This document shows positions 2,963-48,978 of a DNA stretch of 64,000 nucleotides, one piece after another. Under the pieces are notes generated by a model, which saw nothing but the letters and a program-made list of their open reading frames with translations, ran no database searches and had not been told where the DNA came from. The stretch covers positions 195,499 through 259,498 of the forward strand of contig CBDFIB010000004.1 in NCBI GenBank assembly GCA_965247925.1. The letters are read 5' to 3'. The position numbers and the translations under genes are program-made. This DNA is from Dehalococcoidia bacterium (GTDB taxonomy: Bacteria; Chloroflexota; Dehalococcoidia; UBA2979). Within the stretch, counting starts at the first letter, position 1, and every line of letters begins with the position of its first letter.

Positions 2963-3646
2963 TCACTCTTCGGTCTCCGGCGGGCGCGACCCGGCGCGGA
3001 CCAGCCGGCGGCGGCGTCTCGGTCGCTCCGCGGGTGGCGGCTCGGCCGCATCGCCTGAGGCGTCTGGCTCGTCCGGCAGCGCGGCCAGGCGCGCCTCGGA
3101 GCCGCTGCGCTCGGCGATGGCCTCGGCGAGGCGATTGGCGCGCGCGAGGCCCTCGGCGGCGAGCGGGCGCGCCGCGACGACGGTGCCGATCTCGAGCCGC
3201 TTGCCGTTGTCCTTGACCAGCTCGACGTCCCAGCTCACGAGGTCCTGGCGCTCGCCTCCGGCCAACTCGGCCTCGTAGTCGCCCTCGACGGCGATGTGGT
3301 CGATGCGCCAGAAGGGCACGAGTTCGTCGGTCCCGAGGCCGAGGCCGAGCAGCCCCTGCTGCCAGCGCACGGACTGCTTCTCGCGCTCCAGCAGCACGGA
3401 GCGGCCGATCACGTTGTAGACCAGCCCGAGCGTCGCGATCGGCCCCATCAGCAGCGCGACCCCGAGCAGCACGACGAGCAGCGCCAGCGGCAGCACCTCG
3501 AGGAACACGACGATCAGCGCGACAGCCCCGCCGGCGAGGGCGAGCTGGATCAGCGGCGCGAGCAGCTGGGCGCGCGAGCGCCGGATCGCGACGCTGTCGT
3601 CGCCGATCACGGCGACGGCGCGCTGCAGCGGGATCCGCTCTGCCAT
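2963..3646 (-). CDS. Hypothetical membrane protein (two TM helices followed by a PH-like soluble domain; possibly bPH/YdbS-like)
   Basis: ORF 2963..3646. Two long hydrophobic segments (LIQLALAGGAVALIVVFLEVLPLALLVVLLGVALLMGPIATLGL), then a soluble domain with an acidic/Pro-rich tail. Codon usage is consistent with the genome. Confidence 0.55.
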   Translation of the reverse strand: MAERIPLQRAVAVIGDDSVAIRRSRAQLLAPLIQLALAGGAVALIVVFLEVLPLALLVVLLGVALLMGPIATLGLVYNVIGRSVLLEREKQSVRWQQGLLGLGLGTDELVPFWRIDHIAVEGDYEAELAGGERQDLVSWDVELVKDNGKRLEIGTVVAARPLAAEGLARANRLAEAIAERSGSEARLAALPDEPDASGDAAEPPPAERPRRRRRLVRAGSRPPETEE

Positions 3647-3780
3647 GGCGCCGCTCCACCCCTCGCGCTCCCCGGATGTCCGAGTCTAGCCAGGCCGCCG
3701 GACGGCGGCCAGCAGCGCCCGCCGGACGCAGCACCTATCATTGGATGCCGCCAGGCCACGGTCCGCGCCACGGAGGCTCG

Positions 3781-3999
3781 ATGCGTCCCGACCTGATGGA
3801 GATCCTCGTCTGCCCCGTCTGCAAGGGCGAACTGACGCTGAGCGTGGAGCAGACGGCGACCGACTCGCACGGCCGCGAGGAGATCTTGCGCGGCGAGCTG
3901 CACTGCGCGGCCTGCGACCACCGCTACCGCATCGACGACGGCATTCCCAACCTGCTGCCGCCGGAACTGGCCGAGGCGCCCGGGAACAGCCCCGCATGA
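3781..3999 (+). CDS. Trm112-family protein (UPF0434)
   Basis: MRPDLMEILVCPVCKGEL...LHCAACDHRYRIDDGIPNLL is the classic Trm112 zinc-ribbon pattern. Internal ATG at 3781 of track ORF 3676..3999. Confidence 0.8.
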   Translation: MRPDLMEILVCPVCKGELTLSVEQTATDSHGREEILRGELHCAACDHRYRIDDGIPNLLPPELAEAPGNSPA

Positions 4000-4217
4000 C
4001 CGGCGGCGAGCGCTCGCGGACAATCGGCCTGCTGCTGATGGCCGGGGCCGCGCTGCAGCTGCTCGTCTTCTTCGCTGCCGCCTCGCGGCGCTCCTACGCC
4101 GCGCTGGCGCTGCCCGTCGGCGCGGGCCTCGCCGCGATCTCGGCGCTCGCCTTCTGGATCGGCTGCACGATGGCCTACGCGGAGTGGGACGACGGCGATC
4201 CCCCCGCGGGCGCCTAG
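3996..4217 (+). CDS. Small membrane protein (2 TM), translationally coupled to the Trm112 gene
   Basis: ATGA overlap at 3996-3999 (ATG of this ORF overlaps the TGA of Trm112). MTGGERSRTIGLLLMAGAALQLLVFFAAAS...LPVGAGLAAISALAFWIGC. Confidence 0.45.
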   Translation: MTGGERSRTIGLLLMAGAALQLLVFFAAASRRSYAALALPVGAGLAAISALAFWIGCTMAYAEWDDGDPPAGA

Positions 4218-4230
4218 CCGTGCTGCCGAC

Positions 4231-4998
4231 ATGACCAACCCAACGGGAGCCTACGAGCGCCGCATCGAGCTTGAGGGGGTGCGGAACTTCCGCGACCTCG
4301 GCGGCTACGAGACCGGCGACGGCGCGCGCCTGCGCTGGCGCACCGTCTACCGCTCCAGCACGCTCTGCGAGGCGACGCCCGCCGACGTGCAGCGCCTACT
4401 CGACCTCGACCTCACGCTCGTGCTCGACCTGCGCTCCGACGACGAACTCGAACGGACCGGCATCTCCACGCTGCACGAGCACGGCGTCGAACACCGCCAC
4501 GTGCCCTACCGGCGCAGCCTCACGACCTCGGCCGACCGCCTTGCGATGCGCGACCGCTCCGGGACGGGCCTCGACTACCTGCCCGGCATCGAGAGGTGCA
4601 TGCCGGCGGTCGGCGAGGTCTTCGCGGCGATCGCCGAGGTCGACGACGGGCAGGCGATCGCCTTCAACTGCGAGGGCGGCAAGGACCGCACCGGCGTGAC
4701 GGCCGCGCTGCTGCTGCGCGTGCTTGGCGTCCCCGACGAGACGATCGTCCAGGACTACGTGCTCACCCGCGAGTACCTGACGATGTGGCGTGACCTCAGC
4801 GACGAGCAGATCGCGGCGAGGGGTGAGCGGTGGGGCCTCGAGCTGACGCGCGCCATGCTCGACTCCACGCCCGACACGATGGAGGCGCTGCTGCGCGGGA
4901 TCGACGAGCGCTTCGGCTCCACCGCCGCGCTGCTCGCCCTCGGCGGCGTCGACACGTCCCTGATCGAGCGGCTGCGGGAGCGGCTGCTCGAGCGCTAA
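4231..4998 (+). CDS. Protein-tyrosine phosphatase (Tyr_Phos_2 family)
   Basis: CX5R P-loop ([10 protein letters not shown]), RNFRDLGG N-terminal motif. 255 aa. Confidence 0.8.
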
Positions 4999-5531
4999 CC
5001 GGACTCCCAGCCCGCAGCTGCGAGCGGTTCGACCCCCTCGAGGCCGACGTCGTCGCGCAGCTCGGCGACGCTGCGCCCCAGCAGCGGGTGCACGAGCTGC
5101 GGCGCGATCTCCGCGAGCGGGACGAGAACGAAGGAACGCTCGTGCATCCTCGGATGCGGGAGCTGCAGCTCCGCGCTCTCGATCCGCAGCTCGCCGGCAA
5201 GCAGCAAGTCGAGGTCCAGCGGGCGCGGGCTGTTGCGCGGCGCGTCGAGGTCGCGGCCCGCGGCGACCTCGATGCGCTTGCAGAGGCGCAGCAGCTCGAG
5301 GGGTTCGAGCGCGGTGCGCACACAGGCCGCCGCGTTCGCGTAGGGCGGCGCGGGCGCCAGGCAGGCCGGCGAGCCCCACGGCTCCGTCTCGTAGAGCGGG
5401 GACACCGCCTCGACGGTCACACCCGCCTCCGCCAGCCTCGCGAGCCCCGTGCGCAGCGCGGCGATCCGATCGCCGAGGTTGCCGCCGATCCCGAGGTAGA
5501 CGCGCTGCTCCGTGCCCTCGGCGGCTGTCAC
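4995..5531 (-). CDS. folK: 2-amino-4-hydroxy-6-hydroxymethyldihydropteridine pyrophosphokinase (HPPK)
   Basis: [12 protein letters not shown]...PLYETEPWG...RPLDLDLL motifs. 4-nt overlap with folP upstream. Confidence 0.9.
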
Positions 5532-6400
5532 GGCGATTCCGCCCGGCGGCCACCGTGCACGATCGCGTCGGTCACCCTCGCGACATCGGCCATCTCGCGG
5601 ACATCGTGGACGCGCACGATGTCGGCTCCGGCGGCGATGGCGAGCACGACGGTCGCGGCGCCTCCGGCGACGCGCGAGGCGGGCGGCTCCTGCTCGCGCC
5701 CAAGCGCCCAGCCGATCGCGGACTTGCGCGAGCTGCCGAGCAGCAGCGGCCGCCCGAGCGCGCGCAGCTCGCCGAACCGGCGCACGAGCTCGAGACTCTG
5801 CTCCGGCCCGAAGCCGAAACCGAAGCCCGGATCGAGAATCAGCTGCTCACGCGACACGCCCGCCGCCTCCGCGATCGCGAGCGATTCCTCGAGGCCCGCT
5901 CGCACGTCGGCGATCACGTCGCCAGAGGACGGGCGGCCACGCTGGTTGTGCATCAGCACCGCCGGCAGCCCGCGCGCGGCGAGCAGCGGCGCGAGCGCCG
6001 GATCGGCGCGCAGGGCCTGCACATCGTTGAGCGCGTCGGCGCCCGCCTCGAAGGCTCGCCCGGCGACGTACGCCTTCGAGGTGTCGACGCTGATCGGCGC
6101 CGCGACGGCGTCGCGCACGGCGCGCAGCACGGGCGCGAGGCGCGCCCACTCGCCGGGCCCGTCGAGGGGATCGTGGCCGGGGCGCGTGGATTCCGCGCCG
6201 ACGTCGATCAGGTCCGCGCCGTCCTCGATCATCCGCGCGGCCTGCTCGGCGGCGACGGCCGGATCGAGCACGCCGTCGCCGGAGAAGGAGTCCGGCGTGG
6301 CGTTGACGATGCCCATCACGTAGCTGCGCCGCCCCCACTCGAAGCAGCGCCCGCCGATCACGATCGGCGCGGGAGGCGCGGCGGACGGCTCGGACGTCAT
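5528..6400 (-). CDS. folP: Dihydropteroate synthase
   Basis: [16 protein letters not shown]..., [10 protein letters not shown], pterin-binding TIM-barrel motifs. Confidence 0.9.
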
Positions 6401-34594: not shown

Positions 34595-35944
34595 GTGCAG
34601 CAAGACCCGGCCCAGCTCTGGCAGTCCGCACTCCGCTACCTCCGGCAGCACGTTTCCGAGGCCAACTACCAGACCTGGCTCGCCGATACCGAGGGAGTCC
34701 GCCTCGACGGCTACACGCTGATCATCGGCACGCGCTCCGAGTTCGTTACGGAGTGGCTGCAGCAACGCCTCCGGCCCTTGATGCTGCGGACGCTCACGGA
34801 CCTCGCCGATCGCCCGATCGAAGTCGCGTTCGAGCCGTTGCGCCCTCCGGCGGACGACTCGCCGCTGCTGCAGCGGTCGGGCCCGACCGACCGCGGGAGG
34901 CCGGCCTACCCGCGCCCGAGGCTGCACGCTCGCTACGTCTTCGACAACTTCATCGTCGGGCCGGGCAACAGGCTGGCCTTCGCGGCGGCCGAGGGCGTCG
35001 CCGATTCTCCAGGCACGCTGCACAACCCGCTCTTCCTCTACGGCGCGGTCGGCCTCGGCAAGACGCACCTCCTGCAGGGCATCGGTCACCGCCTGGTCAA
35101 GGAGCGGCGGCAGATCACCTACATCTCCGCCGAGCAGTTCACGAACGACCTGGTCACCGCGATTCAGCAACGCACGCAAGAGGAATTCCGCACGCGCTAC
35201 CGCTCCACCGACGCGCTGCTGATCGACGATATCCAGTTCGTCAGGGGCAAGGAGGCCACGCAGGAGGAGCTGTTCCATACCTTCAACAGCCTCTACGAGG
35301 CCGAGAGCCAGATCGTCATCACCTCCGACAAGAGCCCGGTGCTGATCCCGGACCTCGAGGAGCGCCTGCGCTCGCGCTTCGAGTGGGGAATGATCGCGGA
35401 CATCCAGGCGCCAGACCTGGAGACGAGGGTCGCGATCCTGCGCTCGAAGGCCGAGGAGCAGCGCCTGCGGATCGACGATGACGCCCTGCACGTCATCGCG
35501 CGGCGCTTCACCAGCAACATCCGCGAGCTCGAGGGCTCCCTGACGCGCGTCCTCGCCTACTCGCGGCTGACCGGCGAGCGGATTGAGCCCGCGCTCGTGC
35601 AGTCCGCGCTCGCCTCGCTCGACCCGACGGAGCCACGGCTGCCGCCGTCGCCGGAGGCGATCCTCGACGTCGTCTGCCGCTACTTCGAGATTGACCGGGA
35701 GGCGCTGCTCTCGAAGAGCCGCGAGAAGCGCGTCGCCTACCCGCGCCAGCTGGCGATGTACCTGATGCGGGAGCTCGCGCACCGCTCGCTCGCCGAGATC
35801 GGACAGACCCTCGGCGGCCGCGACCACTCCACGGTCCACCATGGCTGGAGCAAGATGGAGCGCTCCGTCAAGGTCGACCCCGAGACGAAGCGCGACATCG
35901 GTACGCTGCGCGAGCTGGTCGAGCGCGCCCGCGAGGTCGCGTAG
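34595..35944 (+). CDS. dnaA: Chromosomal replication initiator protein
   Basis: Domain I (LWQ...L), AAA+ ([19 protein letters not shown]), domain IV HTH ([13 protein letters not shown]). GTG 34595 with GGAAGGG upstream is preferred over ATG 34508. Confidence 0.9.
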
Positions 35945-36125
35945 CCGGCGCACACCCGTCCTGCGCTGCCCGCCGATACGGCCGAACGATCGGAGCGCAG
36001 CCACAGCGCGTACCGCCAGCGGCAGCGATGTGCTGGCGCACGACTGACGCAGGCGGGGCGCTAGCAGGGTGATGAAAAAGTCCGCGGCGGCGCTTTTGGG
36101 CTGAAATCGCGCTGGTCGCGACATC

Positions 36126-36147
36126 AAAAACCCCAATGTTTCTGGGC
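36126..36147 (-). terminator. Possible terminator hairpin for the Eis-like gene (CCCAG-AAACA-UUGGG + GUUUUU)
   Basis: Weak stem, U-tract on the minus strand. Convergent gap between dnaA and the Eis-like gene. Confidence 0.25.
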
Positions 36148-36215
36148 TCTACGCCAGCCCACCGAATGGCCAGTGAGACCTTACGGCTCAGGATCAGGAG
36201 TTTTTCAGCAGCCTG

Positions 36216-37457
36216 CTAGAACTGATCCGCGCACCAGGGGGCGGTGTGCCAGGCGAAGAGCGCGTCGGCGAGGCGCAGGGCCTCGGGGGAGCCTTCGATG
36301 CGGCCCGCCCGGGCGAGCTCCGTGGGTGAGACCCCGCCGAGGTAGACCGCCGCGAGGTCCCCGGCGCCGAGGGTGAGATCGCCCGGGGCGTCGCTGGGAC
36401 GGCAACGCCCGGTGCCGTCCTCCACGTCGATCTCAACGCGGCCGGCGGCCCAGGGACCGAAGGGGTCGCGCACATCAAGGACGAGGCGGCCGTCGGCCAG
36501 GTAGCTGGGCCCTTCGAGGGCCGCGGGCACGTCGAGGATGCGGAGCCAGAGGTTGTCGAGGCGCAGGCGGCGGAGGCGGCGGAGGCGGCGCGGGTCGGCC
36601 AGCATCCACGGGAGCGGGTCGTCGGGCGGGCGGTTGTGGGCCTCGATCGCCTCGACGAGGTCGACACCGAAGACGTAGCGCCAGAGGGCGGTCTCGGCTG
36701 CAGGGTTCGTCGCGACGAGCTCGTGGAGGCGGAGCGATCCGCGGGCAATACCCTCCGCCGAGCCGGCCCTGACGGCGTAGCTGGCGTAGCCCTCGAGGCC
36801 GGAGTGGCCGCTGTATTCGACGTACTGGCGCCTGGTGAAGCCGTCCTCGGGCTTCTCGCTGCGGGGGACGACGAAGGCGCCCCACCAGGCCGGGGTGCGG
36901 GCGATCATCCCGGGCCGGGCTTCGCGCAGGCGCTCGTAGAGGGGCGGCCAGCGCTCGCGTGCGGCCTCCGGGGCGACGAACCGGATCTCACCACCCGGAG
37001 CGGCGGGAGCCGCGGGAACGAAGTCGGTGTGGCGCCGGTCGATACTCACGCGGTCGGCTTGCGCCGCCATGCCGTAACCGAAGCGGCCGTAGATGAGGCT
37101 TTCGGACGCCGTGAGGGCGGCGAGCGGTTCGCCTCGCTCGCGGATGGCATCGAGCTGGCGGCGTGTGAGCTCCGTGAGGATGCCTCGCCGCCGGTGCGTG
37201 GGCGAGACGGTGACGGCGGTGACGCCGGCCGTCGGCAGGTCGCCGCCGGGGACGCTCATGGACAACGAGATGGCGTGCGTCTTCCCGACCAGCTCGTCGC
37301 CTTCGACGGCGCCGAGGCAGCGGTCGAACTCGATCTCGGATCGGACCTGCTCGCCCTCCTCGGCGGCGACCCCGACATCTTCGAGGAAGCCTCGGGCGTT
37401 GCTGACGACCCAGTCGCCCCAGTCGTCCTCGCTGAGCGTGCGATAGCTGATCGTCAC
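36216..37457 (-). CDS. Eis-like GNAT N-acetyltransferase (GNAT + SCP2-like C-terminal domain)
   Basis: 413 aa. GNAT motif A (RRRGILTEL). Length and architecture resemble the Eis family. Confidence 0.7.
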   Translation of the reverse strand: MTISYRTLSEDDWGDWVVSNARGFLEDVGVAAEEGEQVRSEIEFDRCLGAVEGDELVGKTHAISLSMSVPGGDLPTAGVTAVTVSPTHRRRGILTELTRRQLDAIRERGEPLAALTASESLIYGRFGYGMAAQADRVSIDRRHTDFVPAAPAAPGGEIRFVAPEAARERWPPLYERLREARPGMIARTPAWWGAFVVPRSEKPEDGFTRRQYVEYSGHSGLEGYASYAVRAGSAEGIARGSLRLHELVATNPAAETALWRYVFGVDLVEAIEAHNRPPDDPLPWMLADPRRLRRLRRLRLDNLWLRILDVPAALEGPSYLADGRLVLDVRDPFGPWAAGRVEIDVEDGTGRCRPSDAPGDLTLGAGDLAAVYLGGVSPTELARAGRIEGSPEALRLADALFAWHTAPWCADQF

Positions 37458-37524
37458 ATCACGACTATCGGCGGGTGACGGACAACGGGCCAGACGGAGC
37501 GCGGGCAGCGCGCCCCGCCCGCAC

Positions 37525-39162: not shown

Positions 39163-40029
39163 ATGAAGACGTTGCGAGCGCGTCTTGCGCGCTATCTCTT
39201 CCTTTCGACCGATCCGCGACGCCGCGGCCTGAGCTGGTGGGACGCCTCGGAGCTGGGGCTCGTCGCCCTGGGGTTCCTGCTGTACTTCCTCGTACGCGGC
39301 GCGGTGGTGGATCGCACGGCGGACGCCTTCGCGAACGCGCACTGGATCGTGAACCTGCAGTTCACGTACGGGCTGTTCGTGGAGCCGGCCTTCCAGGCCT
39401 GGGTGCTGGAGTACGAGCTGCTGCGGCGCGGGCTCAACTTCGTCTACTTCTGGATGGACTTCCCGCTGATCGTCGCGGTTGCGATGGTGATGTTCTGGAA
39501 GCGCCGCCACGCCTACACGCTGACGCGCGACTCGATCCTGATCTCTGGTGGGCTCGCGCTCGTCGTCTACTGGCTCTACCCGGTTGCCCCGCCGCGCTTC
39601 CTCAAAGAATGGGGCTTCATCGACACGCTCGAGGTCTACGACAACCTCTCGTATCAGGCGCAGTCGCTTCAGCCGTTCGTGAACCCGTTTGCGGCGGTGC
39701 CCTCACTGCATGTCGGCTGGGCGCTGCTGCTGGCCGTCGGGGTGTTCGCGGCGACACGCAACCCGTGGCTGCGCGGGGCGTCGCTGCTGACCTTCGTGCT
39801 GCAGTCGATCGCCGTGGTGGGAACCGGGAATCACTACATCTTCGACGGCCTCGCCGGTCTCGCCGTCTGCGGCATTGCGCTGGGCCTGACGCTGGTGCTG
39901 CACCGCGGCGGCTATCCGCGGCTCCGGAGAGGGCTGGAGGCGTGGGCCGGGATGGCGCCATCACGCTCGTCGCTACGCCGGCCCTCGCGTCCGTCGCCCC
40001 GCGGACTGCGCCCGGGGGCGTCGTCGTAG
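39163..40029 (+). CDS. PAP2-superfamily membrane protein (PAP2_3-like)
   Basis: Multi-TM; PSLHVGWA acid phosphatase motif. Start at ATG 39163. Confidence 0.65.
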   Translation: MKTLRARLARYLFLSTDPRRRGLSWWDASELGLVALGFLLYFLVRGAVVDRTADAFANAHWIVNLQFTYGLFVEPAFQAWVLEYELLRRGLNFVYFWMDFPLIVAVAMVMFWKRRHAYTLTRDSILISGGLALVVYWLYPVAPPRFLKEWGFIDTLEVYDNLSYQAQSLQPFVNPFAAVPSLHVGWALLLAVGVFAATRNPWLRGASLLTFVLQSIAVVGTGNHYIFDGLAGLAVCGIALGLTLVLHRGGYPRLRRGLEAWAGMAPSRSSLRRPSRPSPRGLRPGASS

Positions 40030-40249
40030 CCGGGACGCAAGCAAGCCTCGACGCGCGGTCGCGCCGCATTGCCCCTCGCGGAAATGCCGTGGTAGCGTGG
40101 TGCAGTAGTCGCGGGCGCATGGAAGCGCCCGGCCTGAGGGCGGTCGCCAGGGAGCGACAGCGGCTATCGCCCGGTCGGGGAAGACCGGAGCGGGTGTGTG
40201 CAGGCGGCGTGGACATAGAAGCAGAACAGGACCAGATCAGAACCACCGC

Positions 40250-40516
40250 ATGAAATCCGTAGAGCGCAAGCTCGAACTCATTGCCGAGTACCAGACGCAC
40301 GAGGGTGACACCGGGTCCCCCGAGGTGCAGGTCGCACTACTCACCGAGCGCATCAAGCATCTGACGGGTCACCTCCGCACGCATACGCACGACTACGACA
40401 CGCGGCGCGGCCTGCTCAAGCTCGTCGGCCAGCGCCGCCGTCAGCTCCGCTACCTCAGCAAGAAGGATGTGGGGCGTTACCGCACGCTCATTGGCAGACT
40501 GGGGCTGCGCCGCTAG
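40250..40516 (+). CDS. rpsO: 30S ribosomal protein S15
   Basis: [35 protein letters not shown]..., 88 aa. Confidence 0.9.
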
Positions 40517-40685
40517 CGCGCTCCTCGCTGCTCCTTCCCCGTTCCGGCGTCATTCATTGCACGCGATACGTGTGGCCTCGCGCACGCGCTTCGGGAGAGG
40601 GAGCGAGACAGATCAGAGCACGAATCCACCAGCAGCTACGGCACAACGGGGCGCCAGCACACGCGCGCGCCCGAGGAAGGAGCGC

Positions 40686-43172
40686 ATGACCAGCGCCCAG
40701 CGACTTGAGATCGAAGAACGAACCTTCAGCACGGAGATCGAGGGCAAGCCCTTCACCGTCGGCGTCGGGCTGCTGGCCCTCAACGCCGCCGCCTCCTGCA
40801 CCATCCGCTACGGCGACACGATGATCCTGTCCACCGTCGCCGAGGACGACGCCCGCGAGGGCATCGACTTCTTCCCGCTCACCATCGACTTCGAGGAGCG
40901 GATGTACGCGATCGGGAAGATCCCCGGCTCGTTCTTCCGCCGCGAGGGCCGGCCCGGCAACGAGGCGATCCTCGCCGCACGCATGACGGATCGGCCGATC
41001 CGCCCGCTCTTCCCCAAGGGCTTCCGGCGCGAGATCCAGGTGGTGCTGACCACCCTCTCCGCCGACCGCGAGCACCCCGCCGACGTCTTCGGCACGACGG
41101 CCGCCTCGATGGTGCTCGGTATGTCCAGCATCCCGTTCGAGGGCCCGGTCTCGTCGGTGCGCGTCGCGCGCGTCGACGGGAGCTTCAAGGCGCTCCCCAC
41201 CTACGAAGAGATCGCCGAGTCCGACATCGACCTGATCGTGGCCGGCACCGAAGACTCGATCGTGATGATCGAGGCGGGCGCCAACGAGGTGCCCGAGGCC
41301 GAGGTGATCGAGGCGATCGAGTACGCCCAGGGCGCGATCGCGCAGCTGAACGCGCTGCAGCGCGAGATCTTCGCCGAGCTCGGCAAGGAGAAGGCCTCGT
41401 TCGATCTGCCCACTCCGGACACGGAGATGAAAGAGAAGGTCCGTGAGGCCCTCGTGGGCCGCGAGGAGGAGATGCTGGCCGCCGTCCAGGGCGAAGGCTG
41501 GCGCGGCGTCGACGCCCTCGGCAAGGAGGCCTACGCCGCGATCGGCGACGACACGCTGAACGCCCGCGCCGTGCGCAACGCCGTCGAGGACGAGATCAAG
41601 GTGCTGGTGAGGCGGCGCATCCTGGAGGAGGGCCTGCGGCCCGACGATCGCGAGATCGACCAGGTGCGCGGCCTGCACTCCTCGGTCGGCCTGCTGCCGC
41701 GCGCACACGGCAGCGGCCTCTTCCGCCGCGGCGGCACGCAGATCCTCTCGGTCGCGACGCTCGGCTCGCTCGGCGAACGCCAGCGCCTCGACACGCTCGC
41801 GCCGACGCAGTTCAAGCGCTACATGCACCACTACAACTTCCCGCCGTATTCGGTCGGCGAGGCGCGCTTCATGCGCGGCCCCGGCCGCCGCGAGATCGGC
41901 CACGGCCTGCTCGCCGAGCGCGCGCTGGAGCCGGTCCTGCCGGACAGCGATGAGTTCCCCTACGCGCTGCGCGTCGTCTCCGATGCGCTGATGTCGAATG
42001 GTTCGACCTCGATGGGGTCGGTCTGTGGGTCGACGCTGGCGCTGATGGACGCGGGCGTGCCGATCACGGCGCCGGTGGCCGGCATCGCGATGGGCCTGAT
42101 CACCGGCGAGGGCGACGACTACCGCGTGCTCACCGACATCGCCGGCATCGAGGACGGCCTCGGTGACATGGACTTCAAGGTCGCCGGCACCGAGCGCGGC
42201 GTGACCGCGATGCAGATGGACACCAAGCTGCAATCGCTGCCGGATGGGCTGCTCGAAACGGTCTTCGTCCGCGCCCGCGAGGCGCGGATGACGATCCTCG
42301 AGGTGATGCTCGACGCGATCCCGGAGCCGCGTGACGAGATGTCGGAGTACGCGCCGCGCGTCGAGTTGATCCAGATCGACCGCGAGAAGATCGGCGCGGT
42401 GATCGGGCCCGGCGGCCGCGTCATCAACGCCATCCAGGAAGAGACCGGCTCGAAGATCACCGTCGAGGACGACGGCACCGTGCTGGTCGCCGGCACCGAC
42501 GCAGACGGCGTCCGCAGGGCGCTCGACACGATCCGCGGCCTGACCAAGGAGGTCGAGATCGGCGAGGTCTACGAGGGTTCGGTCAGCCGCATCATGGCCT
42601 TCGGCGCCTTCGTCGAGATCCTGCCGGGCAAGGACGGCCTGGTGCACATCTCCGACCTCGCCGACTACCACGTCAACCGCGTGGAGGACGAGGTCTCCGA
42701 GGGCGAAGTGCTGCGCGTGCAGGTGATCGAGATCGACAACCTCGGGCGCATCAACCTCACGCGCCTGCGTGACGGCGACGACGGCAGTGAGCGCGTCGGC
42801 CTCGCCGACGGCGCCGACGAGCCGCAGCGCGAGCCCGCCTTCAGCGGCGGCGGCGGAGGCCGTGGCGGTCCCGGCGGCGGAGGTCGTGGCGGTCCCGTCC
42901 CGGCGGCGGAGGTCGTGGTGGTCCCGGCGGCGGAGGCCGTGGTGGCCCCGGCGGCGGAGGCCGTGGTGGCCCCGGCGGCGGAGGTCGTGGTGGTCCCGGC
43001 GGCGGAGGTCGTGGTGGTCCCGGCGGCGGAGGTCGTGGTGGTCCCGGCGGAGGCCGTGGTGGTCCCGGCGGCGGAGGCCGTGGTGGTCCCGCCGGAGGCC
43101 GTGGTGGTCCCGGCGGCGGCGGCGGCAACCCGGCGGCGGCGGTGGCGGTGGCGAGCGCGGCGGTGGTGGTAG
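40686..43172 (+). CDS. pnp: Polyribonucleotide nucleotidyltransferase (PNPase); C-terminal low-complexity tail is out of frame as sequenced
   Basis: Two RNase PH domains, KH and S1 (GKDGLVHISDL). After the S1 domain the ORF enters a 24/27-nt repeat. It reads GGGGGRGGPGGGGRGGP, then shifts to PAAEVVVV... at a 'gtccc' duplication (42896-42900). Confidence 0.9.
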   Translation: MTSAQRLEIEERTFSTEIEGKPFTVGVGLLALNAAASCTIRYGDTMILSTVAEDDAREGIDFFPLTIDFEERMYAIGKIPGSFFRREGRPGNEAILAARMTDRPIRPLFPKGFRREIQVVLTTLSADREHPADVFGTTAASMVLGMSSIPFEGPVSSVRVARVDGSFKALPTYEEIAESDIDLIVAGTEDSIVMIEAGANEVPEAEVIEAIEYAQGAIAQLNALQREIFAELGKEKASFDLPTPDTEMKEKVREALVGREEEMLAAVQGEGWRGVDALGKEAYAAIGDDTLNARAVRNAVEDEIKVLVRRRILEEGLRPDDREIDQVRGLHSSVGLLPRAHGSGLFRRGGTQILSVATLGSLGERQRLDTLAPTQFKRYMHHYNFPPYSVGEARFMRGPGRREIGHGLLAERALEPVLPDSDEFPYALRVVSDALMSNGSTSMGSVCGSTLALMDAGVPITAPVAGIAMGLITGEGDDYRVLTDIAGIEDGLGDMDFKVAGTERGVTAMQMDTKLQSLPDGLLETVFVRAREARMTILEVMLDAIPEPRDEMSEYAPRVELIQIDREKIGAVIGPGGRVINAIQEETGSKITVEDDGTVLVAGTDADGVRRALDTIRGLTKEVEIGEVYEGSVSRIMAFGAFVEILPGKDGLVHISDLADYHVNRVEDEVSEGEVLRVQVIEIDNLGRINLTRLRDGDDGSERVGLADGADEPQREPAFSGGGGGRGGPGGGGRGGPVPAAEVVVVPAAEAVVAPAAEAVVAPAAEVVVVPAAEVVVVPAAEVVVVPAEAVVVPAAEAVVVPPEAVVVPAAAAATRRRRWRWRARRWW
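42846..43150 (+). repeat. Tandem 24/27-nt GC-rich repeat (about 11 units, ggc ggc gga ggy cgt ggy ggy ccc) encoding (GGGGRGGP)n
   Basis: Read directly. It lies within the 3' end of pnp and contains two frame-breaking indels. Confidence 0.85.
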
Positions 43173-43231
43173 TGGCGGCGACGGCGGTCGCCGCTGGTAG
43201 CCCCGAGGCCGTGAACTGAGTCGCTACACTT

Positions 43232-43257
43232 GCGCCCCGCCCCACCAGGCGGGGCGC
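43232..43257 (+). terminator. Putative terminator hairpin after pnp (GCGCCCCGC-cccaccag-GCGGGGCGC)
   Basis: Perfect 9-bp GC stem. Weak U-tract, as is common in GC-rich genomes. Confidence 0.45.
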
Positions 43258-43295
43258 AGTCGTTGCGGGCGCGCAGTGCGGACAGGGGGCGCCGG

Positions 43296-44087
43296 ATGAT
43301 TCGGGCAGTGGTCAGCGGAAGCGGCAACATGGGTGCTCAGGTCCTCGCCACGCTCGAGGCCGCCGAGGACATCGAGCCGGTGGGCGTCGTCGAGCCGCTC
43401 GCCGGAGAGACGGGCGAGCTTGAGGCAGCGAGCGGGGCGACGTACCCGCTCTCCTCGGATCCCGCTGCGCTGTTCGCGCAGTTGAGCCCGGACGTGGTGG
43501 TGGACTTCACGAACGCCGCCTTCACGCCGACGCTCGCCGAGGCCTGCCTGGCGCACGGTGTGCGTCCGGTGATCGGCACCTCGGGCCAGCCGGACGAGTT
43601 CGTAGCGACGCTGCGCGAGCGCCTCGCGGAGCGCGCGCTGGGCGGCGTGGTCGCGCCCAACTTCGCCCTCGGCGCGGTGCTGTTGATGCACCTCGCGACG
43701 CTCGCCTCCCCGCACTTCGACGCGGTCGAGGTGATCGAGCTGCACCACGACGGCAAGGTGGACTCGCCCTCGGGCACGGCCGTCGCGACCGCGCAGCTGA
43801 TGCGCGAGGCGAGAGGTCGCGACTTCGACCACCGCAGCTCGGACCTCGAGGCGATCGCGGGCGCGCGAGGCGCGGAGCTGGGCGGCGTCGCGCTGCACTC
43901 GGTGCGGCTGCCGGGGCTGGTGGCGCATCAGGAGGTGATCTTCGGCGGCACGGGCCAGACGCTGACCCTGCGCCACGACTCGACGGGCCGGGACTCGTTC
44001 ATGCCGGGCGTGCTGCTCGCCGTCCGCGAGGTGATGCAGCGCGAGAGCCTCGTCTACGGCCTCGACGCGCTGATCGGGTTGGGTTAG
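43296..44087 (+). CDS. dapB: 4-hydroxy-tetrahydrodipicolinate reductase
   Basis: MIRAVVSGSGNMG NAD(P)-binding N-terminus. HHDGKVDSPSGTA motif. Confidence 0.9.
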   Translation: MIRAVVSGSGNMGAQVLATLEAAEDIEPVGVVEPLAGETGELEAASGATYPLSSDPAALFAQLSPDVVVDFTNAAFTPTLAEACLAHGVRPVIGTSGQPDEFVATLRERLAERALGGVVAPNFALGAVLLMHLATLASPHFDAVEVIELHHDGKVDSPSGTAVATAQLMREARGRDFDHRSSDLEAIAGARGAELGGVALHSVRLPGLVAHQEVIFGGTGQTLTLRHDSTGRDSFMPGVLLAVREVMQRESLVYGLDALIGLG

Positions 44088-44090
44088 GGC

Positions 44091-44267
44091 TCAGTCTCGC
44101 TGCGTGCTCCCGGCAGCCCGGGTCCGAGATTCGGTGGGCTGGGTTGACCCTCGCTCCGCCTCGAACCGTTCGAGCACGCGGTCCGCGGCGCGAACGACCT
44201 GCTCGAAGGGGATCCTGCCTTGCTCGTACTCCCGGTAGAGGTCACGGATGCGCGGCGTGGCGGTCAT
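44091..44267 (-). CDS. Hypothetical small protein (58 aa), translationally coupled to 44264..44548
   Basis: MTATPRIRDLYREYEQGRIPFEQVVRAADRVLERFEAERG... ATG at 44267. Confidence 0.35.
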   Translation of the reverse strand: MTATPRIRDLYREYEQGRIPFEQVVRAADRVLERFEAERGSTQPTESRTRAAGSTQRD

Positions 44268-44548
44268 TGGCGGACTCCCCTCAGGGAGATTCGGATGTTC
44301 GGCTCGTACCACATCGCCCAGAACCAGTGGCGTGGTTCAAGGTGGTGCACCGGGCCAGGCTCGATGCCCGCTGCCGAGACCGCGAGCGAGCGCAATGGCA
44401 GCGATTCGGCCTCGGACAGATCCTCGATGAGCCAGGCCGTCGCAACATTCGTCCGGCCATGCTCGTAACCGCAGTCTAGTTCGTGTGCGACGGCGTGCCT
44501 GCAGACATCGCATGCCTCCACGATCGGCTCGGCGTGGAACTCGATCAC
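44264..44548 (-). CDS. Hypothetical small protein (94 aa, Cys/His-rich N-terminus) in a lower-GC islet
   Basis: MIEFHAEPIVEACDVCRHAVAHELDCGYEHG... Codon third positions are less GC-biased than in neighbouring genes. Its stop overlaps the ATG of the next small ORF (ATGA). Confidence 0.4.
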   Translation of the reverse strand: MIEFHAEPIVEACDVCRHAVAHELDCGYEHGRTNVATAWLIEDLSEAESLPLRSLAVSAAGIEPGPVHHLEPRHWFWAMWYEPNIRISLRGVRQ

Positions 44549-46695: not shown

Positions 46696-46704
46696 GCGCG
46701 GCCC

Positions 46705-47229
46705 TCAGGAGCGCCCGCGCCGCGGCCGTGCGCGCTGCACGCGGGGCCCGCCGCCGGAGCCCAGCTGTTGCTGGAGCAGTCGGGCGACCTCCGGTCGAGT
46801 GAAGGCGGAGTACTTCGTGGCGCCGCGTGAGCGGCGATTGCGCGCCCGTCCGAGGTCGATGAGCGCGACCCGGTCGTCGCTGAGGTGGCGGCTCCACTCG
46901 TCGTATGCGTCGACGAGATATCTGCCGAGCCTCGCGATCAAGCTCGGTCCGCTGGCGCTCCCGAGGCGACTCGGCGAGATGCGGAGCAGCCGCCCCGTGC
47001 CTTCGGCGATGAGCGTGTATACCTCCGGCCATACTCCCACCTGGCGGTGCTGATCCAGCGTGGCGAGGTAGTCGCAGTCCAGATCCCCGAGCATGCGCAG
47101 GAGGTCGCCGTCAGCCCGGCTGCGGATCCGCAGCCGGGGGTCGAGGACATGCAGTGGATCATGACCGAGCGCCTCGAAGATCAGCGCGAGTTCCGGCGGG
47201 AGATGCTCGTCGAGCAGGATGCGCGCTAT
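46705..47229 (-). CDS. PIN-like domain protein (DUF5615-like), putative toxin; start unresolved
   Basis: C-terminal ~170 codons of track ORF 46705..47646: (I)ARILLDEHLPPELALIFEALGHDP... The reading frame abuts the stop of the upstream HTH gene. No ATG/GTG/TTG is available at the expected N-terminus. Confidence 0.45.
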   Translation of the reverse strand: MARILLDEHLPPELALIFEALGHDPLHVLDPRLRIRSRADGDLLRMLGDLDCDYLATLDQHRQVGVWPEVYTLIAEGTGRLLRISPSRLGSASGPSLIARLGRYLVDAYDEWSRHLSDDRVALIDLGRARNRRSRGATKYSAFTRPEVARLLQQQLGSGGGPRVQRARPRRGRS

Positions 47230-47888
47230 CGGATCGCGTCCTCGAACTGCCGGGCACGCTCGATCATCCGCCGCTCGATCCGGAAGGTCTCCGCGAACGC
47301 GTCCGCGCCCATGTCCGCAGCCATGCCGACGACGAATTGAGTCTCGAGCGCGGTGTTCGCCACGGTGGGTTGCGCGAGGTTCATGCGGGGGCTCATGTAC
47401 ACAGCGTCGCGGAAGTGGCTGAGTTCGCCGAGCGATTCCCTCGCCCCGATCTCCGTCAGGACCCGTTCGGTCGCGGCCCCGAGGTCGCGGCAGTCGTCCG
47501 GCCAATCGAGGGCGAACGGCCCTCCCCCGTTCGCCGCCGCATCCGGGCCGGCGGCCGCGAGGCGCCCCCGTGCTCCGGCGGCAAGCGGGTCCGCGATGTC
47601 CCACCATTCGCCGCTGCGCTCGTCGAGGAGGCGGATCGCCTCGCAAACGCGCCCCGCGGGTACGCCCTCCGCGTCGAGACTCGCAGCCAGCCGCAGGCGC
47701 AGGTAGTCGACCCAGTTGTAGAGCCGCGGCGTGCCCGGTCCGCGGTTCTGTGGGCCGCTGTCAAGCAGGCCGTGCTCGCCCCAGTAGCGGATGCGCGAAG
47801 CAGACAGCCCGGTCAACCGGCTGACGAGGCGTGTGCGCAACCCGGCCATTCGCGCTTGCGTGAGCGCCGGACGCGTCTCGATCGCCAT
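47226..47888 (-). CDS. MerR-family HTH protein with C-terminal extension (putative antitoxin/regulator partner of the PIN-like gene)
   Basis: MAGLRTRLVSRLTGLSASRIRYWGEHGLLD is a MerR-type HTH. Start at internal ATG 47888. Confidence 0.55.
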   Translation of the reverse strand: MAIETRPALTQARMAGLRTRLVSRLTGLSASRIRYWGEHGLLDSGPQNRGPGTPRLYNWVDYLRLRLAASLDAEGVPAGRVCEAIRLLDERSGEWWDIADPLAAGARGRLAAAGPDAAANGGGPFALDWPDDCRDLGAATERVLTEIGARESLGELSHFRDAVYMSPRMNLAQPTVANTALETQFVVGMAADMGADAFAETFRIERRMIERARQFEDAIR

Positions 47889-47917
47889 GCTCGCCTCGCC
47901 TGTCCTCGAACCCCAGT

Positions 47918-48430
47918 CTACCCCGCGTCGCGCTCCGCCAGCCATGCCGCCCACTGCGCGCGCAGCGCGCGGCGGGCGCGCTCGAAGCCGATGCGGTCGC
48001 CGTAGTAGCCGCCGAGGACGCCCGCGAGCCCGCGCCCTCCGATCAGCAGGACGACGACGTAGACGACCGTCGCCCAGATCAGGTTTTCGCGCAGGAACGG
48101 CACGCCGAGGACCAGCCCCAACCCACCGAGGACGGCGAGGATCAGCCCGGCGTAGGCGAAGGCGTTCACGATCCGGCTCTCCGTCTGTCGCTGGGCGCGC
48201 AGCATCGCGACGACTCGCTCCGGCACGGCGCCGACGGGCTCGCGCTGGTCCGTGCCCGTGGCGCAGTGCGGGCAGACCCGCGTCCGCTCGCCGAGCGGGT
48301 GGTAGCAGTGGCCGCAGAAGCGCCCGGCGTTCGGTGAGTCGCCCCGGGTGACGGCGACGAGCAGCTCCTCGAGGCGCTCGCTGAACAACGGGCAGTCATC
48401 CTCCGGGCGGTAGCGCTGCTCCTCGCTCAC
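47918..48430 (-). CDS. Zinc-ribbon + 2-TM membrane protein, coupled to mug
   Basis: CPLF...CGHCYHPLGERTRVCPHC four-Cys ribbon followed by two hydrophobic helices. GTG 48430 overlaps the mug stop (GTGA). Confidence 0.5.
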   Translation of the reverse strand: MSEEQRYRPEDDCPLFSERLEELLVAVTRGDSPNAGRFCGHCYHPLGERTRVCPHCATGTDQREPVGAVPERVVAMLRAQRQTESRIVNAFAYAGLILAVLGGLGLVLGVPFLRENLIWATVVYVVVLLIGGRGLAGVLGGYYGDRIGFERARRALRAQWAAWLAERDAG

Positions 48431-48978
48431 GGCGCGACCCGGCCCAGCTCGATCGCCAGCTCGCGCAGCACGCGGTGGACGTGCGCCCGGTAGCCCGCCG
48501 CGCGCCCGGACGTCGAGGGCATCACCCAGACCGAGGCGCCCTCGATCGTGACGGGCTGGCGGCCCCACTGCTCGGGCTGTCGCACGCGCGGGTGCAGCAC
48601 GTCGAAGGCGCGCGTGGTGGTGAAGCAGAGCGCGCGCGGCGAGGCGTAGGCGATGCGGCGGCGGAAGGCCGGGGCGGACTCGCGCAGCTCGGTGTCGCGG
48701 ACGCGCGTGCTGTCCGTCTGCACGCGCTTGACCACGTCGGTGAATCCGATGCCGAAGCTGCCCGGCAGGCGGCGGTCGTCCTCGGGGCCCACGGGTTCGG
48801 GCACCAGGCCGCTTGCCGAGAGCGCGGGCCAGAAGGCGTTGCCGCGATGGCCGTAGTAGTGGCCGAGCCGCGCGGAGCGCTCGCCCGGGTTGATGCCGAC
48901 GAAGACGAGGTCGAGCCTGGGCCGCAGCAGATCGGGCAGCGTGCGCAGACGTGCGGGCGCCTCGGGGGCTGCGGTCAC
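48427..48978 (-). CDS. mug: G/U mismatch-specific uracil-DNA glycosylase (family 2)
   Basis: LVFVGINPG motif. 183 aa. Confidence 0.8.
   Translation of the reverse strand: MTAAPEAPARLRTLPDLLRPRLDLVFVGINPGERSARLGHYYGHRGNAFWPALSASGLVPEPVGPEDDRRLPGSFGIGFTDVVKRVQTDSTRVRDTELRESAPAFRRRIAYASPRALCFTTTRAFDVLHPRVRQPEQWGRQPVTIEGASVWVMPSTSGRAAGYRAHVHRVLRELAIELGRVAP

Follow-up and report, generated by a model that had tools for sequence, protein, structure and literature searches.

Does the polynucleotide phosphorylase (PNPase) gene pnp of a Dehalococcoidia bacterium encode a glycine/arginine-rich C-terminal tail, and are the two indels that interrupt the reading frame of this tail real mutations or errors of the sequence record? 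The question is raised by the 3' end of pnp in a 64,000-nucleotide (nt) stretch of contig CBDFIB010000004.1 (assembly GCA_965247925.1), which is hereafter called the window. An earlier note on this DNA had described pnp as continuing after its S1 domain into a GC-rich minisatellite that encodes (GGGGRGGP)n and is broken by two indels, a description that is borne out by the sequence. The explanation that we favor, and regard as probable when taken as a whole, combines a real, conserved tail with indels that are errors of the record. In this explanation, the 3' end of pnp would encode a conserved extension composed of an acidic linker, a disordered Gly/Arg/Pro tail of ~115 amino acids (aa) and an invariant Gly-Gly-Arg-Arg-Trp-COOH tip. 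The tail would be built from an in-frame 24-nt minisatellite, in which gain or loss of whole units between strains preserves the frame. The two indels in the window, a 5-nt duplication of GTCCC and a C4-to-C3 loss located 3' of the array, break this frame, most likely as consensus errors at a site where reads of co-occurring strains with different arrays meet, and the true product would have ~836 aa and end in ...GGDGGRRW.

The pnp gene and the tandem array at its 3' end

The pnp gene is contained in an open reading frame (ORF) on the plus strand (40467-43172), with the ATG at 40686 (MTSAQRLE...) as the probable start, as in the public product. According to Pfam, the product contains RNase_PH in two stretches (1.1e-41), RNase_PH_C, KH_1 (562-617) and S1 (623-692), arranged in the PNPase order RNase PH - RNase_PH_C - RNase PH - KH - S1. 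In the second PH domain, the residues N438, G439, S440, S442 and G493-D494-M495-D496-F497-K498 are invariant in a 27-sequence alignment (termed A1, down to 56% identity) and present in the window protein; they belong to the NGSxS and GDMDFK motifs, which we take to be active-site and phosphate-binding motifs. The core is strongly matched by solved PNPases (phmmer vs PDB, E = 1.8e-212 to 1e-109, residues ~8-705) and shares 98-99% nucleotide identity with its closest relatives, and the gene is flanked by rpsO upstream and dapB downstream, as it is in the relatives. The canonical PNPases (E. coli, Caulobacter, and Streptomyces/Mycobacterium GpsI; 3CDI, 4AM3, 1E3P, 7LD5) have the same domains, catalytic motifs and rpsO-pnp order; however, none of the solved structures covers a Gly/Arg tail, as they align to residues ~8-705 of the 841-aa relative P0001.

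The 24-nt array that follows was delineated by Tandem Repeats Finder at 42848-43123 (11.5 copies, 87% matches, score 395), and a manual parse divided it into one 27-nt, nine 24-nt and two 21-nt units, all of them GGGGRGGP-like and amounting to ~11 units overall; the G+C content of 42846-43200 is 83%. Up to 42896, FSGGGGGRGGPGGGGRGGP is read in the pnp frame (positions = 0 mod 3). Past the GTCCC duplication, the annotated frame turns into (PAAEVVVV)n, reading PAAEVVVVPAAEAVVA..., and is terminated by TAG at 43170-43172, whereas the Gly/Arg reading is found in frame 2 and extends to GGC x5 AAC CC (43112-43131); after the one-base loss it is resumed in frame 1 up to the natural stop at 43198-43200. 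The window sequence across the two lesions is GTCCCGTCCC at the duplication and AACCCGG at the one-base loss, and all three frames are open across the array. The two stops and the shift into PAAEVVVV had been called correctly in the earlier note. Its coordinates for the duplication (42896-42900) are off by one, the extra copy being 42897-42901, and the base that it had found missing before the natural end is indeed lost, but from the C run in AACCC at 43127-43131 (AACCCC in relatives), so that N-P is a more likely repair than the Q-P of the earlier note.

The units of the array differ from each other in a way that points to the Gly frame. Differences between full units of the window array fall at unit positions 12, 18 and 21, each of them the third position of a codon when the array is read in the Gly frame; this restriction to third positions includes the units downstream of the shift; in addition, there is one GGC-to-GCC (Gly-to-Ala) change. 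Since the unit variants occupy third positions of the Gly frame, this frame was under selection until very recently, if it is not still. The G+C content of third codon positions (GC3) was also tried as a frame indicator and dropped: across the array, GC3 minus its second-position counterpart GC2 remained high in the annotated frame, and the measure is uninformative here, as a one-base change of register puts a G at each third position of any (GGN)n array. The alternative (PAAEVVVV)n frame was considered as a conserved product and rejected, as it has no meaningful homologue; a search for such a tail among 5.8 billion cluster representatives returned no related sequence.

Codon usage in the tail diverges from that in the core. 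Arginine is encoded by CGT in 11/11 cases in the tail (42846-43126) vs 3/60 in the pnp core (40686-42839), where CGC accounts for 46/60; glycine is encoded by GGT (23) and GGA (11) in a large part of the 69 tail codons, whereas GGC accounts for 60/72 in the core. CGT is also used throughout the tail of a 93%-identical relative (L004). A frozen accident that unit duplication then spread could account for this divergent usage, as could selection against long (GGC)n runs.

Conservation of the Gly/Arg tail in related PNPases

A homologue search with the repaired protein retrieved thousands of PNPases, and the best 120 were examined for length and names. These proteins are mostly 780-920 aa long, in contrast to ~700-720 aa for canonical PNPases, and nearly all of them carry a Gly/Arg-rich extension after S1; the named sources are metagenome-assembled genomes of uncultured Chloroflexi, Dehalococcoidia or SAR202. 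The C-termini of 134 PNPase sequences with identities down to ~52% were compared; RRW is the end of 86 of them and RRF that of 4, while most others are partial or cut off. In the alignment A1, R839, R840 and W841 are invariant (27/27) and the two Gly residues before RRW nearly so, whereas the tail body varies in sequence, unit type and length. Tails in this clade extend over 100-220 aa after S1 and are composed of lineage-specific repeat units, for instance GGGGRGGP in the window, GGGGGRGPGGPRGG in P0008, GGGGGGNRGGREGG in P0035 and GGGDRGGRG in P0037. As judged from these sequences, the pattern fits a low-complexity region that evolves by slippage, with selection acting on its composition, frame and tip.

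Closer relatives were compared at both the protein and the DNA level. The as-sequenced product of the window is present in the public collections (P0121, 828 aa, NCBI and ENA, on one contig of 2.14 Mb). Its cluster at 90% identity has 44 members, 14 of which were examined. In all 12 complete ones, the Gly/Arg frame is maintained as far as ...GG(D)GGRRW, over 4-12 units and total lengths of 783-847 aa; the remaining two are one protein that is cut off and P0121, the sole frameshifted member. The copy number of the array differs between relatives by whole units, always in frame. None of the cluster members that were retrieved is near-isogenic to the window; the best comparator among them is 98.9% identical in the pnp core and ~96% in the flanks. 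For the DNA comparison, we used seven independent relative contigs from four samples (L001-L004 and L208-L210), with pnp cores that are 95.3-98.9% identical. The second GTCCC is missing from all seven, and the six closest ones have GGC AAC CCC GGC where the window has GGC AAC CC GGC, i.e., the C4-to-C3 change.

Both comparisons support the intact Gly/Arg reading of the earlier note, given that ...GGDGGRRW is reached in 7/7 relative contigs and in 12/12 complete proteins of the cluster. They indicate that the Gly/Arg frame is the biological frame and that the tail is real, under selection and normal for the clade. A lack of any repeat after S1 in relatives, which would have spoken against the earlier note, is not what was found: related pnp 3' ends carry in-frame arrays. 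The earlier suggestion that the repeat varies between strains holds for its length (4-12 units) but not for its phase, as the units are multiples of three and the relatives are in frame. Likewise, the tail is unusual in comparison with solved and model PNPases, which align over ~8-705 only, but it is the rule in this Chloroflexota clade, where 86/134 C-termini end in RRW.

A scan of genome contigs with the PNPase core (L005-L084) gave listed matches of at most 62% identity, with no close species among them. Many Chloroflexota PNPases in these listed contigs (from Anaerolineae and Dehalococcoidia) carry shorter Arg/Gly-rich tails, in most cases with RR or DRR and no Trp at the end, and the listed Firmicutes and cyanobacterial PNPases are without such tails. 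From these sequences, the tail seems to characterize the whole phylum, and the RRW tip one subclade.

Table 1. Features of the pnp locus in the window (positions of the whole stretch) and small RRM proteins that share the C-terminal tip.
Feature	Coordinates	Strand	Basis or remark
pnp catalytic and RNA-binding core, aa 1-692	40686..42761	+	Pfam: RNase PH x2, RNase_PH_C, KH, S1
Acidic linker between S1 and tail, RLRDGDDGSERVGLADGADEPQREPAFS, with conserved RVGL motif	42762..42845	+	A1 consensus ...RVGLxDE...; net charge -4
First two GGGGRGGP units (27 nt + 24 nt), still in the pnp frame, reading GGGGGRGGPGGGGRGGP	42846..42896	+	frame 0 translation
Extra GTCCC, tandem copy of 42892-42896; +5 frameshift, private to the window	42897..42901	+	not present in L001-L004 or L208-L210
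Remaining nine units (7 x 24 nt, 2 x 21 nt), GGGGRGGP when read in frame 2 only	42902..43111	+	manual parse
One-base loss: AACCC in the window vs AACCCC (Asn-Pro) in relatives	43127..43131	+	frame bookkeeping, DNA alignments
Distal tail GGGGGGGERGGGGSGGDGGRRW and natural TAG stop (43198-43200), frame 1	43132..43200	+	same end in relatives
TAG ending the ORF as sequenced; P0121 ends ...RRRRWRWRARRWW	43170-43172	+	frame translation
Perfect 11-bp GC hairpin, 30 nt past the natural stop, no T run	43231..43258	+	fold; hairpin conserved in relatives' alignments
Small RRM_1 proteins with GGRRW tip	L161:144-434(-), L118:3767-4057(-), L184:3105-3452(+), L199, L201, L206		metagenome contigs, 41-65% G+C

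Origin of the two indels

The earlier note had left the choice between slippage and assembly error open. The evidence leans toward error: both lesions are private to the window, being absent from the seven relative contigs, and no cluster representative has a PAAEVVVV-type tail. Both indels are probably repeat-specific errors of consensus building or polishing in a GC-rich repeat. The array region of pnp is the most GC-rich and most repetitive stretch of its neighborhood; the homogeneous array core has the first lesion at its proximal edge, and 16-20 nt past the last unit comes the second one, which alters the length of a homopolymer (C4 to C3); and the sample ERZ28763718 contains three contigs with two different tails, i.e., co-occurring strains. 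A repeat-specific error is plausible because of this combination of a GC-rich repeat, the positions of the lesions, a homopolymer change and co-occurring strains with different arrays.

The frequency of such indels elsewhere was surveyed in ~19 kb of the window, within a range (31.7-53.2 kb) that is interrupted by two non-homologous gaps, against three relative contigs (L085-L087). The other private indels of the window are intergenic, namely 34191 and 34213, which compensate each other, 34431, 40581 (3 nt) and 50871. At 44277 alone an ORF is touched: an extra C relative to L085-L087 falls within the final codons of a minus-strand ORF (hypothetical, 95 aa); this position is also located just upstream of the next small ORF, which has 58 aa in relatives and 73 aa as the longest ORF in the window. 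The contigs L086 and L087 (8x coverage) contain private 1-nt indels of their own: in L087, pepA is split (279 + 222 aa; 4270-5774) and dnaA is truncated (3610-4215). These 1-nt indels show the indel error rate of such metagenome assembly at low coverage, and the fact that conserved genes are hit by plain errors in sister assemblies of the same data type adds to the case for an artefact.

Several points weigh against errors of the record and the explanation built on them. No constrained gene is broken elsewhere in the compared ~19 kb, and the window assembly is clean outside the repeat; therefore, any error must be repeat-specific. A 5-nt tandem duplication is atypical of long-read error, and real slippage can yield one. 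The ~4% nucleotide divergence from the nearest relatives allows time for real lesions, and the as-sequenced product stands as called in public collections. In addition, the RNA-binding or condensate role ascribed to the tail below is drawn from composition and analogy only.

A real strain-specific lesion ranks below an artefact, and we give it a smaller but substantial chance. It would mean that the first indel replaced the Gly/Arg tail by a Val/Ala-rich sequence, leaving the core and two RGG units; the repeat, now unconstrained, would then have gained the second lesion, the tail being dispensable or recently lost in this lineage. The survey can be read in this direction, with no detectable errors in ~16 kb of constrained coding sequence of the window compared with relatives, and with the other private indels sitting where selection is weak, as would be expected of true mutations. 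Tandem repeats are hot spots of mutation, slippage classically gives rise to 5-nt tandem duplications, and the nearest relative has an overall identity of only 96% (98.9% for the pnp core), which leaves time enough. However, the frame and the RRW tip are kept by 12/12 complete close relatives and by ~90 more distant ones, an indication of strong constraint, and the units past the shift are still perfect Gly-frame codons, so that the loss would have to be very recent and yet to involve two hits. Moreover, a 92-aa Val/Ala tail on an abundant trimeric enzyme looks harmful, and a PAAEVVVV-type tail occurs in no other record.

A contingency locus or programmed recoding, in which frameshifting by repeat slippage or by the ribosome toggles between tailed and untailed PNPase, is very improbable: its sole support is a hypervariable tandem repeat inside a gene with all three frames open across the array, whereas the units of 24, 21 and 27 nt are multiples of three, so that slippage preserves the frame, neither lesion is a unit-length change, every relative is in frame (12/12 complete cluster members, 7/7 contigs) with no out-of-frame allele but that of the window, relatives have nothing to recode, two shifts (+5 and -1) would be needed, and an Rfam scan of 39500-44500 gave no match.

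Errors of the record thus remain the reading that we prefer, and the public 828-aa protein (...PAAEVVVV...RRWW) is very probably wrong at its C-terminus and merits a flag or a re-check. The frameshift itself is ordinary, either a record error worth correcting or else a private lesion. More generally, GC-rich coding minisatellites in strain-mixed metagenomes would be weak spots of otherwise clean long-read assemblies.

Predicted properties of the tail and similar modules in other RNA-binding proteins

The repaired tail, counted from F719, has 118 aa, close to the ~110 aa estimated in the earlier note, with 71% G, 12% R and 10% P, 12 RGG and a net charge of +12, whereas the frameshifted tail as sequenced has 92 aa, including 30 Val and 28 Ala. 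Repair of the second lesion probably gives ...GGGGGNPGGGG... (...GGGGGNPGGGGGGG...), not ...QP..., in agreement with P0127 and P0129 (...GGPGGGGGNPGGGGGGG...). AlphaFold2 on P0001 (98%-identical, 841 aa) assigns residues 706-841 a predicted local distance difference test (pLDDT) score of ~30-35 and no secondary structure, while pLDDT in the core is mostly 85-95 except for two low-confidence segments; the model thus predicts a disordered Gly/Arg tail. The RGG motifs are classified as di-RGG, RGG(X0-4)RGG, and strict tri-RGG, which has the form RGG(X0-4)RGG(X0-4)RGG (PMC9957100). The repaired tail has two di-RGG matches; strict tri-RGG is found neither in it nor in P0001, because the usual spacer PGGGG has five residues, and it occurs in several relatives, with 10 matches in P0037 and 3 in P0003.

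We propose that, in the PNPase trimer, three such cationic tails (+12 each) would surround the RNA entry at the KH and S1 domains, where they may raise RNA capture or multivalent self-association, with the Arg-Arg-Trp carboxy-terminus as one sequence-specific contact. Known systems offer partial likenesses. The C-terminal domain of RNase E, which is involved in bacterial ribonucleoprotein bodies (BR-bodies), is a charged low-complexity scaffold on an RNA-decay enzyme that could promote multivalent RNA and protein contacts; the tail described here differs from it in being borne by PNPase and in consisting of Gly/Arg/Pro instead of alternating charge blocks. The eukaryotic RGG/RG or glycine-arginine-rich (GAR) boxes (hnRNP U, FUS, fibrillarin, nucleolin) are likewise disordered Arg-Gly-Gly repeats on proteins of RNA metabolism, whereas the window tail has mostly 5-residue spacers and no interspersed aromatics except the single terminal Trp. 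The arginine methyltransferases of the PRMT type are described as being widely distributed in eukaryotes (PMC9957100).

The layout of a folded RNA-binding domain followed by a disordered Gly/Arg C-tail is also shared by bacterial Gly-rich RRM proteins (the type I Rbp of cyanobacteria, e.g., Synechocystis Rbp1) and by the RNA-binding proteins of the glycine-rich type (GR-RBPs) of plants; however, the bacterial RRM proteins have an RRM in place of S1, KH and PH domains, and tails of 10-40 aa vs 100-220 aa in PNPase. In tobacco GR-RBP1, the disordered Gly-rich region drives self-association and improves nucleic-acid melting (PMC4117745). The Gly-rich region of Synechocystis Rbp1 is dispensable for the cold-adaptation phenotype (PMC9333190), and therefore a function of such tails cannot be assumed.

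To test whether the GGRRW tip is specific for PNPase, metagenome contigs were scanned with GGNGGNCGNCGNTGGTAG, yielding 120 matches. Most of them lie in short open frames and match by chance; those that are convincing as coding sequence comprise three fragments of PNPase-like tails, located at the ends of contigs, and nine small proteins. Six of the small proteins are full-length and are assigned by Pfam to RRM_1 (E = 1e-22 to 1e-24), each with a short Gly/Arg tail ending in GGRRW (Table 1). An aromatic residue after a G/R stretch forms the C-terminus of 106/120 bacterial RRM homologues of one of these proteins (P0169-P0288; W 82, Y 19, F 5), giving the pattern R-x-W/Y/F, and the tips among these 120 include RRW (24), DRW (17) and NRW (8); such proteins are often labeled 'cold-inducible RNA-binding protein' by the Joint Genome Institute (JGI). 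This conserved aromatic C-terminus of bacterial RRM proteins seems undiscussed in the literature that we found. By analogy, the PNPase tail looks like an expanded version of the tail module of an unrelated bacterial RNA-binding family, and the shared module supports an RNA-related role for the PNPase tail.

A wider proposal is offered tentatively, since we judge it rather unlikely to hold in full: a disordered G/R tail ending in R-(R/x)-W-COOH may be a conserved C-terminal module of bacterial RNA-binding proteins, short in RRM proteins of many phyla and expanded and minisatellite-encoded in the PNPases of Chloroflexota (Dehalococcoidia/SAR202-like). Such a module would be a counterpart of the RGG box for RNA capture, for self-association or condensates, or for docking of the Trp tip to a common partner, with in-frame repeat change and selection on composition and tip only. 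No description of a Gly/Arg tail on PNPase or of a shared RNA-binding tail module was found in the open-access literature, which is weak evidence. A whole Chloroflexota clade possesses a PNPase with a long RGG-like disordered tail and an invariant RRW tip, the latter in common with small bacterial RRM proteins. If the tail binds RNA or self-associates, RGG-type disorder on an RNA-decay enzyme could be studied in a simple bacterial setting, and the tail would provide a candidate organizer of RNA decay that is borne by PNPase and not by RNase E.

Several further observations concern the surroundings of the tail. The linker between S1 and the tail contains the motif (S/T)ERVGL(A/S)D at 42786-42806 (aa 701-707, GSERVGL), which is conserved clade-wide in an otherwise variable acidic sequence and, on this basis, may be a second linear motif. 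Folding of the whole 81-nt segment with the hairpin downstream of the natural stop gave z = -1.36 vs shuffles, which is not significant alone, and terminator and promoter scans around the pnp 3' end found nothing.

In the wider neighborhood, dnaA (~34596-35944, plus strand), identified via its Pfam-annotated orthologue in L085, is located 5 kb upstream of pnp. Judging by the position of this gene, the window is probably near the replication origin; a coarse GC-skew profile of the window has no clear switch. A segment of ~1.5 kb between dnaA and pepA (35950-37510), which contains a 413-aa ORF on the minus strand (36216-37457), is absent from L085-L087, where the two genes are ~55 nt apart, and by this comparison it looks like a strain-specific insertion beside dnaA. 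Downstream of dapA, there is a variable segment (46698-47923), the length of which differs between the window, L086, and L085/L087. A UDG-family gene is present as one 353-aa ORF in L086, whereas L085 and L087 have it as two ORFs of 171 and 183 aa; at 48446, where the sequences differ by 1 nt, the window has the version of L085 and L087 and departs from L086.

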